Origin: Candidatus Woesearchaeota archaeon
Lineage (GTDB): Archaea; Nanobdellota; Nanobdellia; SCGC-AAA011-G17; JACPIM01
Direction of reading: 5' to 3'
Assembly (NCBI GenBank): GCA_964513145.1
Contig: CAZELK010000006.1
Coordinates: 2,051 to 66,050 of the forward strand
DNA length: 64,000 nt
How positions within the stretch are numbered: position 1 is the first letter of the stretch; each line of letters opens with the position of its first letter. This document shows positions 3,086 through 41,367 of the stretch, piece by piece. Position numbers and translations under genes: made by a program. Under the pieces are notes generated by a model. It was not told where the DNA came from. It did no database searches and saw only the letters and a program-made list of their open reading frames with translations.

Positions 3086-3143
3086 TTCAAAAAAATTTAA
3101 AACTAGGAAACTTTATAAATATATTTTAGGGAAGAAATATTAA

Positions 3144-3245
3144 GCCCGGGTAGCTCAGACTTTTCCTATATTTAGGAATTGGAGCAACAGGTAGAGCGCA
3201 TGGCTGTTAACCATGAAGTCGGTGGTTCGAGTCCTCCCCTGGGCG
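3144..3245 (+). tRNA. tRNA-Asn (anticodon GTT) with a ~29-nt intron in the D-loop
   Basis: Acceptor stem GCCCGGG/CCTGGGC. D stem GCTC...GAGC is interrupted by ttttcctatatttaggaattggagcaaca. Anticodon arm CATGG-CTGTTAA-CCATG, anticodon GTT. T arm GGTGG-TTCGAGT-CCTCC. Mature length is ~73 nt. Confidence 0.7.
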
Positions 3246-3302
3246 TTTCTCTTAACTGTGATTTATGGCTGTAAAATTTAGAATTTATTAAACATTATGA
3301 TA

Positions 3303-17921: not shown

Positions 17922-19022
17922 ATGATGGAAAGTTTTGTAAACCAGGCTTTGAAAAATACTAAAGAATTTGGTATGGATGATGTTCATGTTGGTGTAGCCA
18001 ACATTAAGGTTGTAGGTTGTGGTGGTGGAGGAAGTAATACTGTTACTTGGCTTCATAAGAAGGGTATTTCTGGAGCAGAGGTTGTAGCTCTTAATACTGA
18101 TAAACAGCATCTTGAAATTTCAAGTGCTGATTACAAAATTTTAATTGGAAAAGAATTAACAAGGGGTTTAGGCTGCGGCGGATTTCCTGAAAAGGGAAGA
18201 GAAGCAGCTAAAGAAAGTTTGCATGATTTAAAAGAAGTTTTGAAAAGTTCTGACATGGTTTTTGTTTGCGCTGGTTTGGGCGGAGGAACTGGAAGCGGAA
18301 GTGCACCAGTTGTAGCTCAATTAGCAAGAGAACAAGGGGCTATTGTTATTGGTACTGTTACTATGCCTTTTGATATTGAAAGGGCCAGGGTTGATAAAGC
18401 TGAATTTGCTTTACAACAATTAAGAGAAGTTAGTGATACTGTTATTGTTATTGACAACAACAGATTAACGAGTATTGCAGGAAACTTACCAATACAACAA
18501 GCATTTGCTGTTGCAAATGAATTAATTTCTACAATGATTAAGGGTATTGTTGAAACAATTGCAGTTCCATCATTAGTAAACTTAGACTATGCTGATGTAA
18601 AGGCAATAATGTCCAATGGTGATGTATCTGTTGTTGGTATTGGAGAAAGTGATACTGATTCAAGAGTAGAGGAAGCAACAAGAAGGGCATTAACAAACCC
18701 ATTATTGGATGTAAGTTATGATGGTGCAACTGGCGCTTTGATACACATAACTGGCGGAGATGACTTAACTTTAGATGAGGTCAATAGAACTGGTGAATTA
18801 ATTACTGAGAGTCTAGACCCTGATGCTAATGTTATCATGGGTGCAAGAATTGAACCTAGCATGAAAGGCAAGATAAGAGTTATGACTATTATAACTGGCG
18901 TAAACTCCCCATATATTCTTGGAAGGGTTGACAAGAAAAAATTTGCTAACCCTGGAGTGAAAGTTAGCCCTGATTTAGGGATAGACATGGTTGGGCTAAC
19001 TGCAGCTACAAGAAGGTTTTAA
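17922..19022 (+). CDS. ftsZ: Cell division GTPase FtsZ
   Basis: GGGTGSG tubulin signature. The N-terminus is MMESFVNQAL.. and GGGGEG aligns 8 nt upstream of ATG 17922. The track ORF starts at an upstream Met, 17862. Confidence 0.9.
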   Translation: MMESFVNQALKNTKEFGMDDVHVGVANIKVVGCGGGGSNTVTWLHKKGISGAEVVALNTDKQHLEISSADYKILIGKELTRGLGCGGFPEKGREAAKESLHDLKEVLKSSDMVFVCAGLGGGTGSGSAPVVAQLAREQGAIVIGTVTMPFDIERARVDKAEFALQQLREVSDTVIVIDNNRLTSIAGNLPIQQAFAVANELISTMIKGIVETIAVPSLVNLDYADVKAIMSNGDVSVVGIGESDTDSRVEEATRRALTNPLLDVSYDGATGALIHITGGDDLTLDEVNRTGELITESLDPDANVIMGARIEPSMKGKIRVMTIITGVNSPYILGRVDKKKFANPGVKVSPDLGIDMVGLTAATRRF

Positions 19023-19028
19023 GCTCCT

Positions 19029-19096
19029 GGGCATACTTTCCCCCATGCCCATGCTAAATCTTGCTAGTGCCATAGGCACTAGCTACTTTTTTTTAT
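19029..19096 (+). terminator. two GC-containing hairpins followed by a T9 run downstream of ftsZ
   Basis: GGGCAT-n10-ATGCCC, then GCTAGTGCC-ata-GGCACTAGC, then tactttttttttattttt. Confidence 0.35.
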
Positions 19097-36395: not shown

Positions 36396-37829
36396 TTAAC
36401 TTATTATAGAACTATACAAATTTATAGCTTCTGCAAAGGAGGCTGATGACAAGGATTTAGTGTCTATATAGTCTTTAATTGAGTTTAATAATTTCTCTGC
36501 TTTCTCAAGATATTCCTTATTATTTGTTTTTTTATATAAAGCCAATAATATTTTAACAGCCAAAGAATTTTCTTCTGTATCAATTCTTCTTATTTTTAAA
36601 TAACCAAAATTATCTTCTGAGTCTTGTATATCATAAAAAACTGTTTTATTTTTATCAAAGAAATTGTTAATTGTTTTCTCAATTAATTTCTCTGCTAAAC
36701 CCATGTATTTTTTTTCATTGGTGCTTAATAAAGAACTAATTAATAATAAATGATTTTTTAGCAAGCAAGGCTCACGAGCTTTAGAATCGTAAAAATGCAT
36801 AACCCCCTTACCTGAAACCATATTTACTATTATGAAATCCAATATTTTCAAAGCAATTTCCCCATATCTGGAATCTTTTAAAATTTCCGAAGCAATTAAA
36901 AATGAATTTATTGCATAACAATTAAAAGCTAAAAATAAAGTCTTGTCAATGAAAGGCTTTTTATATTCTGATCTTTGTTTTAATGTTAGTTTACTGTATT
37001 TTTCATCTGCATCTTGGCTTGAATAAAAGAATGTTTTTTCTTTATTCAAAAAAACTTCTATAATAAAATTAATTGTTTTTAATGCAACTTCTTTATATTT
37101 CTCATTTTCTGTCAATTTATACAAATATAAAAAGTTCTTCAATAATCTTGCATTGTCGTCAAGTAATTTTTCATAATGCGGGCTTGACCAATCTTGCTGC
37201 TGTGCATACCTATAAAAACCGCCTTCTTCTTTATCAAATATTTCATTATCAGCCATAGTTGAAAGGGTTTTTGTTAATATTACTCTTGCGTTTTTTTCTT
37301 CATCAAATAACATCATCAAAAAATCTATGATCTGATGATTTGGAAATTTTGGGAGAGGTCCAAAACCACCAAAGTATGGATCATAAGAAAGTTCTATTGT
37401 GCTTAAAATCTCCTGCTGCATTTTTTGTAAATCAGTATTATTGAATTTTGGCAATTCGAAAATTATTTCTTCTTTTATTTCTTTCTTGAATTTTTCTAAA
37501 GCATTGTCCAAAAAGTCCAACATATCAAAGGGTGGCAAGTATAAAGCACCTAGAATTAATCCGCCTTCTTTGTTCAAAATTGCTGTACTTGGCCAACCAC
37601 CCAAATTATATCTATTATTTATGTCTGGCCGTTTATCTGTATCAACCCTAATTGGAATAAAATTGTTATTTATTTTGTCAATAACTTTTGTGCTGGAATA
37701 TGTATCTTTATCTAATCTGTGGCACCAATGGCACCATATTGCAGATATGCTTAATAAAATCGGTTTTTTTTCTTTTTTTGATTTTTCAAAAGATTCTTTA
37801 CTCCATTCTAGCCAATTTGGTTTATCCAT
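36396..37829 (-). CDS. Thioredoxin-domain protein, DUF255 / YyaL family
   Basis: 477 aa. N-terminal thioredoxin-like fold (ISAIWCHWCH) followed by an alpha/alpha-barrel-like region. Confidence 0.75.
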   Translation of the reverse strand: MDKPNWLEWSKESFEKSKKEKKPILLSISAIWCHWCHRLDKDTYSSTKVIDKINNNFIPIRVDTDKRPDINNRYNLGGWPSTAILNKEGGLILGALYLPPFDMLDFLDNALEKFKKEIKEEIIFELPKFNNTDLQKMQQEILSTIELSYDPYFGGFGPLPKFPNHQIIDFLMMLFDEEKNARVILTKTLSTMADNEIFDKEEGGFYRYAQQQDWSSPHYEKLLDDNARLLKNFLYLYKLTENEKYKEVALKTINFIIEVFLNKEKTFFYSSQDADEKYSKLTLKQRSEYKKPFIDKTLFLAFNCYAINSFLIASEILKDSRYGEIALKILDFIIVNMVSGKGVMHFYDSKAREPCLLKNHLLLISSLLSTNEKKYMGLAEKLIEKTINNFFDKNKTVFYDIQDSEDNFGYLKIRRIDTEENSLAVKILLALYKKTNNKEYLEKAEKLLNSIKDYIDTKSLSSASFAEAINLYSSIIS

Positions 37830-37881
37830 TTCTAGACTATCAACAATAGAATTTATAAAGTATTTTGTTATCTTCAGAAAA

Positions 37882-39645
37882 ATGAAAAAAATAGCAGTAA
37901 TAATTGATAAAGGCAGGTGCTATCCAGAAAGATGCCAACATGAATGCATGAAGTTTGATCCTGTCAACAGATCTGGAGGGCAAGGTTTTCATTTAGGTAT
38001 AGATGGAAAATCCTGTATTGACGAAAAAATAGCTACTGAAATGCATAAAATTTGTGCAAAGAAATGTCCTTTTAACGCAATTACTATTGTAAATTTACCA
38101 GAAGCTTTGAAAGAAGAACCAATTCACAGATTTGGAAACAATGGATTTATGCTTTATGGTCTGCCTTTGTTTAAAGAAAATAAAGTCATCGGTATTTTGG
38201 GTAGAAATGGAATTGGCAAAAGCACGGCATTAAATATTTTATCAGGAAGCTTAGTGCCAAATTTAGGAAGATATGATGAGAAAACTAAAGATGAGAATGT
38301 AATAAGCAGATATTCTAAAGTTTCCTTAGGTGGTTATTTTAAAAAATTATATGATGAAAAAATTAAATTCTCATACAAACCGCAAAGGGTTGAATTAATC
38401 AACAAGGCTTTTGATGGAAAAGTTATTGACTTGTTAAAAAAAATTGATGAAAAAAATGAAAGCGAAAGATTAATTGAAGAATTTGAACTTGACAAAATAA
38501 AAAATAGAAATATTAAAGACTTATCTGGGGGAGAATTACAGAAATTAGCAATAATTGCAACTTATGTAAAAAAAGCAGATTATTATTTTTTTGATGAACC
38601 TTCTTCTTTTTGTGATATTCAAAACAGAATTAAACTTGCAAAACTAATAAAAGAATTAAGCAAAAATTCTAGTGTCATTGTAGTTGACCATGATTTAGCT
38701 ACTTTGGATTTTGTTTCTGATGAGATTCAAATTGTTTATGGCGAGCCTGGGGCATATGGTATTTTTTCCCAAAGCAAGGGAATAAGCAGGGCAATTAATG
38801 AATATCTTGAAGGCAATTTAAAGGAAGAAAACATCAGATATAGAAATTACAGCATTAATTTTAATCCATTGACTTATAGAAGAGAGCATCATAATGAAAT
38901 ATTTCTTGAAATTCCCTTATTGAGAAAGCATTTTAGTGATTTTAAATTAGAAATAAACAAGTTTAATTTATTTAAAGGGCAGGTTGTTGCTATAATGGGC
39001 GCAAATGGATTAGGGAAAAGCACATTTTTGAATATTATTTCTGGAAAAATTAAGGCAGACAATTCTGATTTTAAAATTAAAAATGTTTCATACAAAGAAC
39101 AAGACCTAGAAAGCAAAGACATGAGTGTAAATGAATATTTATTATCAAAAGGAAATGATCTTTTTACAGATAACTGGCTAAAATCAATTTTAATTGAAAA
39201 GCTTAATTTAGAAAGATTATTTGATGACAATATGAAGACCTTATCTGGCGGAGAACTGCAAAAAGTAAATATTGCCGGGGCTTTGGCAAAAAAAACTGAC
39301 ATCGTACTACTTGATGAGCCGTCAGCTTTTATTGATGTTGAAGACAGATTGAAAGTAGCTGAAATAATAAAAGATTTTGCAATTAAAAAGGAGATATGCG
39401 CTATTATTGTTGACCATGATATCCAATTTATTGATTATTTGGCAGATGCTATTTTAGTTTTTGAAGGAATACCTGGAAAAGAAGGAAGAGTTTCTGGGCC
39501 TTTTTTAAAAAATGATGGCATGAATAAAGTTTTAAAAAATCTTGAGATTACCTATAGAAAAGATAAAGATACGAACAGGGCAAGAATAAACAAAGAAGGT
39601 TCTCAATTAGACCAGATGCAAAAAAATAAAGGGGAATATTACTAG
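37882..39645 (+). CDS. abcE1: ABCE1 / RNase L inhibitor (ribosome recycling factor, twin-ABC ATPase with N-terminal 4Fe-4S domains)
   Basis: Start is MKKIAVIIDKGRCYPERCQHEC (two Cys clusters). Two NBDs (GRNGIGKST and GANGLGKST, LSGGELQ x2). The track ORF starts at 37399, an upstream in-frame extension that overlaps the opposite-strand gene and is not credible. Confidence 0.9.
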   Translation: MKKIAVIIDKGRCYPERCQHECMKFDPVNRSGGQGFHLGIDGKSCIDEKIATEMHKICAKKCPFNAITIVNLPEALKEEPIHRFGNNGFMLYGLPLFKENKVIGILGRNGIGKSTALNILSGSLVPNLGRYDEKTKDENVISRYSKVSLGGYFKKLYDEKIKFSYKPQRVELINKAFDGKVIDLLKKIDEKNESERLIEEFELDKIKNRNIKDLSGGELQKLAIIATYVKKADYYFFDEPSSFCDIQNRIKLAKLIKELSKNSSVIVVDHDLATLDFVSDEIQIVYGEPGAYGIFSQSKGISRAINEYLEGNLKEENIRYRNYSINFNPLTYRREHHNEIFLEIPLLRKHFSDFKLEINKFNLFKGQVVAIMGANGLGKSTFLNIISGKIKADNSDFKIKNVSYKEQDLESKDMSVNEYLLSKGNDLFTDNWLKSILIEKLNLERLFDDNMKTLSGGELQKVNIAGALAKKTDIVLLDEPSAFIDVEDRLKVAEIIKDFAIKKEICAIIVDHDIQFIDYLADAILVFEGIPGKEGRVSGPFLKNDGMNKVLKNLEITYRKDKDTNRARINKEGSQLDQMQKNKGEYY

Positions 39646-40366: not shown

Positions 40367-40509
40367 CTATCAGAAATGGGCGATTTAGAAATAATAGAAA
40401 AATTAACTGCTAAAAGTAAGCTTACAAAGAAAGATGTTTTAGAATTAAGCAGAAAAATAAATAATAATGTATCAAGAAAACTGGGATTATATTAATATAA
40501 TTAAAGGCA

Positions 40510-41367
40510 TTATTTTTTATTTTTTTCGCGCGCGAGACGTACCCCGAGCCCGCCATTCGAGAGATCAGGATTGCCATTGCAGCCCAGGTAAGCCCAGTCA
40601 GCAACAGCACCGAACCAAGCGACTCTACAATCAACAGGATACCAATAATTAAAATCAGTTCCTTCTTTTGTTGGCATTCCCTGCTTATTAAAAGAACTTA
40701 ATTCAACTTTACAGTCTTTCATTACACAAGTTTCTAGAGGTTCAGAATTTGTTGCTTCTAGTTTTTTACATTTAGTTCTATGATTGTAATTTAAATGTAA
40801 ATTTCCATTTTTATCTTCGAATTTGGCATCTAACCATTCTGCCCTATAAGGATCTCTTACTTCTGTAATATCCAAATAAAGAGTTTGCAAATCTGATTTT
40901 GATATTTTATTTCCCAATCCATCTTCTGCTTTACCTGATTTTAATAATAAAAGAAAATCTGCAAATTCTCTTAAGTTTAACATTCTTGCATCTTGCTTAT
41001 GGGCTTCTTTATGAGTTTCATACCAATTATTTCGGTGTAATATTCTTTCTTTAGCAACATATAAACTATGAGAAGGCATGAAAACATAATCTGCCAAATT
41101 AGCTTCTTGAACTGAAGTTATTTTTTCTAGTTTTTTCCCAATCATCTCTTGTTCTGTTACTTCTTCGGACTTTTCTTCTTGTTTTTTGTCTTTCTTTGAT
41201 TTTTCTAGCTGAATTTCTTGTTCAATATTGTCTGTTAAATATAATCCAGAACCAACTATTTCATTTAATTTAAATAGATAATCTTTCGAGAATTTATCAG
41301 AATCTGATATTTCTTTGCATATTTTCTCTAGTTCACTTTTCCAAGCTTCAAATGATTCAAAAACCAT
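40510..41367 (-). CDS. hypothetical protein (285 aa) with a compositionally foreign, GC-rich C-terminal domain
   Basis: Acidic/Lys-rich middle. C-terminus CRVAWFGAVADWAYLGCNGNPDLSNGGLGVRLAR is encoded by a ~60% GC stretch (40510-40640) with non-native codons (ctg, ggc, gcg, cgc). Confidence 0.55.
   Translation of the reverse strand: MVFESFEAWKSELEKICKEISDSDKFSKDYLFKLNEIVGSGLYLTDNIEQEIQLEKSKKDKKQEEKSEEVTEQEMIGKKLEKITSVQEANLADYVFMPSHSLYVAKERILHRNNWYETHKEAHKQDARMLNLREFADFLLLLKSGKAEDGLGNKISKSDLQTLYLDITEVRDPYRAEWLDAKFEDKNGNLHLNYNHRTKCKKLEATNSEPLETCVMKDCKVELSSFNKQGMPTKEGTDFNYWYPVDCRVAWFGAVADWAYLGCNGNPDLSNGGLGVRLAREKNKK

Follow-up and report, generated by a model that had tools for sequence, protein, structure and literature searches.

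Diversity-generating retroelements (DGRs) employ a reverse transcriptase (RT) that copies the RNA of a template repeat (TR) into cDNA and misincorporates nucleotides opposite template adenines, and this cDNA then replaces a variable region (VR) at the 3' end of a target gene. In the DGRs of the Bordetella phage BPP-1 (Mtd) and of Treponema (TvpA), the VR lies in a C-terminal C-type-lectin fold, the usual scaffold of DGR variable proteins, the TR adenines are found in AAC and AAT codons, and a GC-rich initiation of mutagenic homing (IMH) sequence at the VR is paired with a divergent version, IMH*, at the TR. Here, a 64,000-nt stretch of contig CAZELK010000006.1 from a Candidatus Woesearchaeota archaeon (assembly GCA_964513145.1; the whole stretch is called the window below) was analyzed, in which a short GC-rich island is found at the 3' end of the gene for a protein of 285 amino acids (aa), P0001. 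This island is very probably the VR, together with an IMH-like end, of a DGR target gene encoding a protein with a C-type-lectin fold in a DPANN archaeon, and would then belong to a known kind of element. The family to which it belongs resembles the Mtd and TvpA systems in its C-terminal C-type-lectin-fold VR, in its AAC and AAT adenines and in the contrast between a GC-rich IMH-like end and an IMH*, but differs from them in that no sequence similarity exists, that no Avd was recognized, and that an AAA_5 ATPase gene and two or three targets paralogous to each other are part of the cassette. Furthermore, TR and VR are collinear in Bordetella, whereas most TRs of the family described here are interrupted by an insert.

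DGRs described from DPANN archaea and Nanoarchaeota (PMC4372165; PMC5758913) are also close to the present case. They share with it an AT-rich archaeal host, a DGR-type RT (here in related loci), substitutions specific for adenine, a VR at the 3' end of an "orphan" target without Pfam match, and the capacity of one TR to serve several targets. Nanoarchaeal DGR targets were indeed first described as orphans (PMC4372165). The window target is distinct in that any TR or RT must be at a distance of 23 kb or more and in that its family was linked to no named one here, and the BHB-type (bulge-helix-bulge) insert present in most TRs of the family (12, versus 6 that are collinear with their VRs) is not described in PMC4372165 or PMC5758913. 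The features assigned to the window gene are the following:

40510 to 41367, minus strand: predicted DGR target gene for P0001, 285 aa (open reading frame (ORF), homologs, AlphaFold2 (AF2) model, Foldseek, profile match)
40544 to 40624, minus strand: predicted VR proper, 81 nt, AGTCGCT...GCTCGG (stretch homologous to the TR)
40527 to 40543, minus strand: IMH-like GC-rich 3' end of the VR, GGTACGTCTCGCGCGCG (conserved in VRs, differs in TRs)
40555 to 40556, minus strand: footprint of the predicted exon-exon junction of a spliced template RNA, TCGAA/TGGCG (comparison with intron-bearing TRs)
40510 to 40526, minus strand: native AT-rich ORF tail AAAAAAATAAAAAATAA, the end of ...EKNKK plus stop, outside the segment written by the retroelement (sequence reading)

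The GC content of the whole window is 29.1%, and when it was determined over 100-nt intervals, a median of 0.29, a 99.9th percentile of 0.51 and a maximum of 0.62, located at 40496-40652, were obtained. A preliminary description of this stretch had reported here a 130-bp island of about 60% GC, with codons that appear almost nowhere else in the window. The island is real and is the most extreme of the window, and its GC content was confirmed (62.9% in the 97 nt at 40527-40623 of the coding strand, versus 28.6% in the remaining gene), but the strictly anomalous stretch covers only about 98 nt (40527-40624 on the minus strand, which is the coding strand), corresponding to residues 248-280 of the ORF. 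The final five codons (EKNKK, then stop) are AT-rich again. As to the codons, CTC, TCG, GCG, CGC and CGT occur at 0.65-1.7 per 1000 codons each in the other 37 long ORFs of the window, so that the earlier statement is roughly correct, although GGC (10.1 per 1000) and CTG (5.2 per 1000), which had been included, are less rare. Within 40527-40623, the GC content at third codon positions is 0.59, versus 0.15 in the remaining gene, adenine accounts for 10.3% of the bases versus 43%, and adenine at third positions is reduced to 0.03 versus 0.49. The most diagnostic anomaly of the island is this depletion of adenine and not its GC richness as such. When the window was scanned for other adenine- or thymine-depleted GC islands, no second VR-like segment was detected.

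The 56 homologs of P0001, which belong to DPANN archaea (Woesearchaeota or Nanoarchaeia) wherever they are named, are 60-75% identical across the body of the protein. In the last 40 residues or so, the protein alignment reveals a fixed scaffold, VA.F.A.A..A.L.C...P..S...LGVR.AR, with hypervariable positions in between, and the reading frame of the window gene, which is translated at 40544-40624 as V-A-W-F-G-A-V-A-D-W-A-Y-L-G-C-N-G-N-P-D-L-S-N-G-G-L-G, passes through the patch into the conserved LGVRLAREK terminus of the family. Pfam and NCBIfam scans gave zero matches for P0001 or any of the 56 homologs. In an AF2 model computed with the family alignment, residues 90-285 were predicted with pLDDT (predicted local distance difference test) values above 90, preceded by a helical, charged N-terminus of low confidence (residues 1-89). 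Almost all of the top 50 hits in a Foldseek search against the PDB are C-type lectin-like domains (LOX-1, DC-SIGNR, NKR-P1B, langerin, NKG2D), with a best probability of 0.98 and a target TM-score of up to 0.70, and the family profile also matches NKG2-D by sequence (E=2.6e-4). According to the model, residues from about 90 to 285 of P0001 are a C-type-lectin-like domain with the variable residues in its C-terminal part.

The loci around the homologs were fetched as DNA (86 loci), among them L001, around P0002, and L004, around P0004; L001, L004 and L019 stem from groundwater (for example the Hainich series ERZ1292623). Both L001 and L004 contain three copies of the GC-rich segment, two of them at the 3' ends of paralogous genes and the third one intergenic, adenine-rich and with AAT, AAC and AGG codons. 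L001 also contains a full RVT_1 reverse transcriptase gene with the DGR hallmark LGNYTSQ and the catalytic YVDD, and L004 begins within a truncated RT gene that retains the same RT motif. The combination of TR, VRs and RT in these two loci is the anatomy of a DGR. Among the 86 fetched loci, 24 have a DGR-type RT (Pfam RVT_1, GN[YL]TSQFF...YVDD) beside the TR, in most cases immediately downstream, and related DPANN loci carry a TR, one to three VRs and a DGR-type RT (GNxTSQ...YVDD). The cassette at L001:4503-11110, and likewise those of L004, L007 and L009, has the order RT, 55-aa ORF, AAA_5 ATPase (442 aa), target 1 (293 aa), 580-aa protein, target 2 (258 aa), TR; in this type of cassette about 5.4 kb separate the RT from the TR downstream of it, whereas in most other loci the RT directly follows the TR. 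An Avd-like accessory gene was not recognized.

When the window VR was compared with the TR of the related locus L001, which is not from the window's own genome, the unspliced TR differed from it at 16 of 27 adenine sites and 2 of 63 non-adenine sites. After removal of the insert from the TR, the two sequences could be compared over 85 nt including the fixed GGAATA/GGGGTA end, and all 13 mismatches fell on TR adenines, with none at the 60 non-adenine sites. The last two of these 13 differences (GGAATA in TRs, GGGGTA in VRs) are identical in every VR and therefore reflect the distinction between IMH and IMH* and not mutagenesis. For the 81-nt VR proper, 12 of 22 TR adenines and 0 of 59 non-adenine positions differ. 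The TR adenines occupy first and second codon positions (AAT, AAC, AGG, GAC, GAG). In a self-comparison of the fetched loci, 44 TR-VR pairings were obtained in which at least 75%, and mostly 100%, of the mismatches fall on TR adenines, some of these pairings stemming from one contig that was fetched twice. Pooling 20 TR-VR pairs from the 12 intron-bearing loci, with the insert removed, gives differences at 294 of 472 adenine sites versus 9 of 1233 non-adenine sites. In the 18 loci with a background of 33% GC, the mean composition is 50% GC and 27% A for TRs, and 61% GC and 12% A for the 31 VRs.

The VR of the window gene is located at the 3' end of the ORF and terminates in a GC-rich IMH-like end distinct from the IMH* of the TR. 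At the position corresponding to 40527-40543, VRs have GGTACGTCTCGCGCGCG and TRs have AATAACTCTGGTTTCTAGG, the equivalent of IMH*. The VRs of L001, L004, L007 and L008 share the IMH-like end in the form GGGGTACGT[C/G]TCGCGCGCG, and all TRs read GGAATAAC where VRs carry this end; AATAACTCTGG is likewise read there in the TRs. Even when 3 mismatches were allowed, the IMH-like motif occurred only once in the window, with 0 occurrences expected.

These comparisons suggest how the island may have acquired its composition. About 12 codons on the ligand-binding face of the C-type-lectin-like domain would be rewritten by cDNA homing. Positions that need to remain constant would have to be non-adenine in the TR, and scaffold codons would use G, C and T instead of the A preferred by the genome, whereas the rewriting of A to any nucleotide would strip further adenines from the VR and the GC-only IMH-like end would mark the segment as the recipient of homing. 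The GC island would thus result from the avoidance of adenine at scaffold positions, from A-to-N rewriting and from the IMH-like end, and this logic explains the apparently foreign codons without foreign DNA.

In the preliminary description, a recent horizontal (for example host-derived) patch, a selected RNA structure and an assembly chimera had been considered as origins of the island. It correctly recognized the patch as differing in composition from its surroundings and as being of special origin, but none of these three candidates holds as stated. DNA recombined recently into the 3' end of the gene would account for a composition foreign to the genome; however, more than 50 homologs from independent samples carry the same patch in the same place, the patch is depleted of adenine and not merely GC-rich, and it matches a TR with adenine-only differences, so that a horizontal origin is highly improbable. 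The source proposed was wrong, but the idea was close in spirit, as the segment appears to be templated from another locus, the TR of a DGR, by reverse transcription. GC islands in AT-rich archaea are often RNA genes, and one GC peak of the window (3138-3281) is indeed a tRNA. That the end of the coding sequence overlaps with a non-coding RNA, a terminator or a regulatory element is nevertheless just as hard to credit, because no tRNA (ARAGORN) or Rfam match was obtained at the island even at E values up to 10, the folding energy is no better than that of dinucleotide shuffles (z = +0.86 and -0.64 for the two strands), and variation among homologs tracks codons and TR adenines and not base pairs. 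The least probable origin is an assembly chimera or sequencing artefact. The composition does change abruptly at both edges, but the frame is continuous through the patch to the conserved LGVRLAREK terminus, assemblies obtained from many samples and with many pipelines agree in this architecture, and a chimera is refuted by the GC-rich 3' end that the 31 VRs in the 18 independently assembled related loci share. The comparison with orthologs, which had been proposed as the test that could expose an artefact, revealed none with native AT-rich codons in the patch, and thus an artefact is not indicated.

Once TRs and VRs were aligned beyond the first 69 nt or so, it became apparent that the TRs of 12 distinct loci contain an insert of 18-30 nt that is missing from all 20 cognate VRs and from the window VR. 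Six TRs of the family (L021, L028, L038, L055, L070, L072) lack the insert and are collinear with their VRs. The BHB-like inserts, which occur in five lengths, are listed below with these lengths; L025 and L033 are listed separately although their introns are identical.

L001:11103-11127, BHB-like insert in TR, 18 nt
L004:5870-5894, BHB-like insert in TR, 18 nt
L007:6773-6797, BHB-like insert in TR, 18 nt
L013:1730-1760, BHB-like insert in TR, 24 nt
L015:1821-1848, BHB-like insert in TR, 21 nt
L016:1441-1468, BHB-like insert in TR, 21 nt
L019:12901-12931, BHB-like insert in TR, 24 nt
L025:2901-2925, BHB-like insert in TR, 18 nt
L032:855-887, BHB-like insert in TR, 26 nt
L033:8432-8456, BHB-like insert in TR, 18 nt
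L041:834-858, BHB-like insert in TR, 18 nt
L042:11615-11651, BHB-like insert in TR, 30 nt
L058:2815-2839, BHB-like insert in TR, 18 nt

Intron-bearing TRs read CTCGAA[18-30 nt]TGGCG or similar. Past the insert, homology between TR and VR resumes and locus-specific bases co-vary (GGCGAGC in L001, CCCGACC in L004, GCTGACC in L007), and adenines are mutagenized in the VRs on both sides of the insert site. The co-varying bases and the mutagenized adenine past the insert indicate that the homed cDNA spans the insert site and yet lacks the insert. As the two positions after CTCG vary among VRs, they must be templated by adenines, and as the next position is T in all VRs, it must be templated by the U that follows the insert, which makes the junction unambiguous.

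The insert and its flank can be written as CUCG-AAA-[h' stem-loop]-CGAG-A(U/A/G)U. Each of the 12 distinct TRs combines a 4-bp helix H, CUCG/CGAG (CGGG in L016), with the bulges AAA and A[U/A/G]U, and an inner helix h' of 2-6 bp is present, a geometry that matches the definition of the BHB motif (PMC6379350). Pairing is observed in 92.6% of the cells, versus 30-51% in controls with the partner strand shifted by 1-3 columns, and compensatory changes occur at four pairs of h' (UCU/AGA, UCUC/GAGA, UCUUU/AAAGA, UUUAAC/GUUAAA, UCUA/UAGA). In the crystal structure of the ARMAN-2 EndA-RNA complex, the scissile phosphate is located between the second and third bulged nucleotides (PMC12397907). Canonical cleavage of the inserts predicts CUCGAA/UGGCG, which is the junction that the window VR (between 40556 and 40555) has in common with all 20 cognate VRs. 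The deletion is asymmetric, as the 5' strand of H (CUCG plus AA) is retained and the 3' strand (CGAG plus AU) is lost, which is a signature of BHB splicing and not of hairpin bypass by a polymerase. The inserts thus resemble the archaeal BHB introns of tRNA, rRNA and a few mRNAs, which are substrates of the splicing endonuclease EndA (PMC6379350; PMC12397907), in their 4-bp helix, two 3-nt bulges, inner helix h', short length and cleavage after the second bulge nucleotide, and differ from them in that the host RNA would be the template of a retroelement and in that splicing is deduced from DNA, by comparing TR and VR.

An intron of the same geometry is present in the window itself. The tRNA-Asn(GTT) gene at 3144-3245 on the plus strand, which accounts for the GC peak at 3138-3281, has its D-loop split by a 29-nt intron (3159-3187) with the structure GCUC-AGA...GAGC-AAC, in which H is GCUC/GAGC and the bulges are AGA and AAC. 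ARAGORN misses the intact gene but calls a 73-nt tRNA after 3159-3187 is removed, and Rfam gives a partial match at 3188-3241. As this tRNA-Asn needs removal of its intron, the organism evidently splices BHB introns at non-canonical positions.

Taken together, the sequence comparisons suggest that the TR insert is probably removed by RNA splicing. With only slightly less confidence, we favor the interpretation that the TR is an interrupted gene whose BHB mini-intron is excised by the endonuclease and ligase of the host, every VR then being a DNA record of the splicing event. In the case of the window gene, a TR of the L001 type located elsewhere in the genome would service the VR in trans. This TR would carry a BHB mini-intron of 18-30 nt as in the 12 related loci, the archaeal tRNA-splicing endonuclease and a ligase would excise it from the TR RNA ahead of reverse transcription, and the window VR would then record the spliced junction TCGAA/TGGCG as predicted with the TRs of related loci. 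The intron might protect the TR DNA from self-homing. In the searchable literature, which does not extend to the DPANN/candidate phyla radiation (CPR) survey of Paul et al. (2017), no account of a BHB intron in a DGR template was found.

Several observations weigh against the interpretation of the island as a VR rewritten from a spliced template. In the 64-kb window, no TR was detected by blastn with a word size of 7 or by searching for the IMH motif, and no RT was detected with the motifs YxDD and GxxxSQ...YxDD or by tblastn with the cassette proteins of L001. The paralog P0006 (251 aa, 64-74% identical), taken to lie on the same 84,025-nt contig outside the window, has VR residues (CDWDPSSSNADLG) that cannot be encoded by an L001-type TR. 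With respect to the protein, the Foldseek E-values are weak (0.016 or higher), and no solved DGR variable protein is among the top 50 Foldseek hits. With respect to the insert, helix H is invariant and provides no covariation, and an outer exon-exon helix h was not seen on inspection of the TRs, so that only the relaxed HBh' form fits; relaxed HBh' motifs are substrates of the endonucleases with broad specificity found in Nanoarchaeota, Crenarchaeota and ARMAN (PMC6379350). Finally, TR/VR indels occur in about 7% of DGRs and have been ascribed to slippage near AAC repeats (PMC5758913).

The last point would fit a process in which the insert remains unspliced and the RT skips the hairpin by template jump or slippage during cDNA synthesis, and the insert does follow an AAC codon, the TR/VR length difference thus being found, as in those indels, beside AAC. 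The indels reported in PMC5758913, however, vary between VRs, whereas the family TRs have one precisely bounded, structured insert of 18-30 nt that is conserved across loci and found in no VR. Skipping by the RT also fails to account for the asymmetric loss of the 3' strand of H and for boundaries that are identical in 20 VRs despite the range of insert lengths; direct repeats at these boundaries do not exceed 1-2 nt, and a BHB intron with this geometry is spliced from the tRNA-Asn of the same organism. Skipping is considered doubtful. A second alternative concerns the present state of the window gene, whose distance to the nearest window edge is 23 kb. As neither a TR nor an RT is present in the window, the gene may be a remote target serviced in trans or possibly a relic, that is, a VR written by a DGR in the past which no TR or RT services now and which is kept by purifying selection on the lectin-fold scaffold. 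The cassette genes for the AAA_5 ATPase and the 580-aa protein are likewise absent from the window (tblastn with the L001 cassette proteins), so that the 23 kb to each side of the gene are free of TR, RT and cassette genes. The requirement of P0006 for another TR, which must have at least three non-adenine positions different from those of a TR that fits the window VR, would also suit a relic, as it implies a genome with at least two TRs or one in which one VR is a relic. On the other hand, the IMH-like end of the window VR is intact and identical to that of VRs adjoining TRs, and at none of the 59 non-adenine sites does it differ from the L001 TR. At third codon positions not templated by adenine, 26 of 26 positions are identical to L001, whereas upstream of the VR identity at synonymous third positions is 87%, giving a chance of about 0.03 for such a result, and remote targets are a known feature of DGRs (PMC5758913). 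The intact IMH-like end and the third-position identity would favor a serviced target, although they are not decisive, and we consider it unlikely that the window gene is a relic.

Other features of the window were noted in passing. The remaining GC peaks, judged by eye, are mostly coding-sequence-like. At 18944-19089 on the plus strand, a GC peak of 0.50 may represent a small RNA or a terminator, as two short hairpins with perfect pairing, GGGCATACTTTCCCCCATGCCC and CTAGTGCCATAGGCACTAG, precede a T-run there; no Rfam family was matched at the gathering score. The long ORF at 37399-39645 on the plus strand includes, judging by eye from its translation, a protein resembling ABCE1 (RNase L inhibitor), in which 4Fe-4S motifs are combined with two ABC ATPase domains, and this fits an archaeal genome; translation probably starts far downstream of the GTG listed as the start at 37399.

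Taken alone, the feature in the window is one more DGR target in a DPANN archaeon. Nevertheless, it illustrates that in an AT-rich genome a DGR VR can be recognized from the sequence alone by a simple signature, an adenine-poor, GC-rich island at the 3' end of a gene, even when TR and RT are distant, and DGR finders that require a collinear alignment of TR and VR would truncate or miss insert-bearing elements. The insert seen across the family is of greater importance than the window feature. If the insert is a BHB intron, it would represent a new class of substrates for the archaeal splicing endonuclease, it would offer a mechanism for at least some of the TR/VR "indels" that were earlier ascribed to RT slippage, and the VRs would provide a natural DNA read-out of RNA splicing. 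If true, a dependence on archaeal BHB splicing would become known for the template of a retroelement for the first time.

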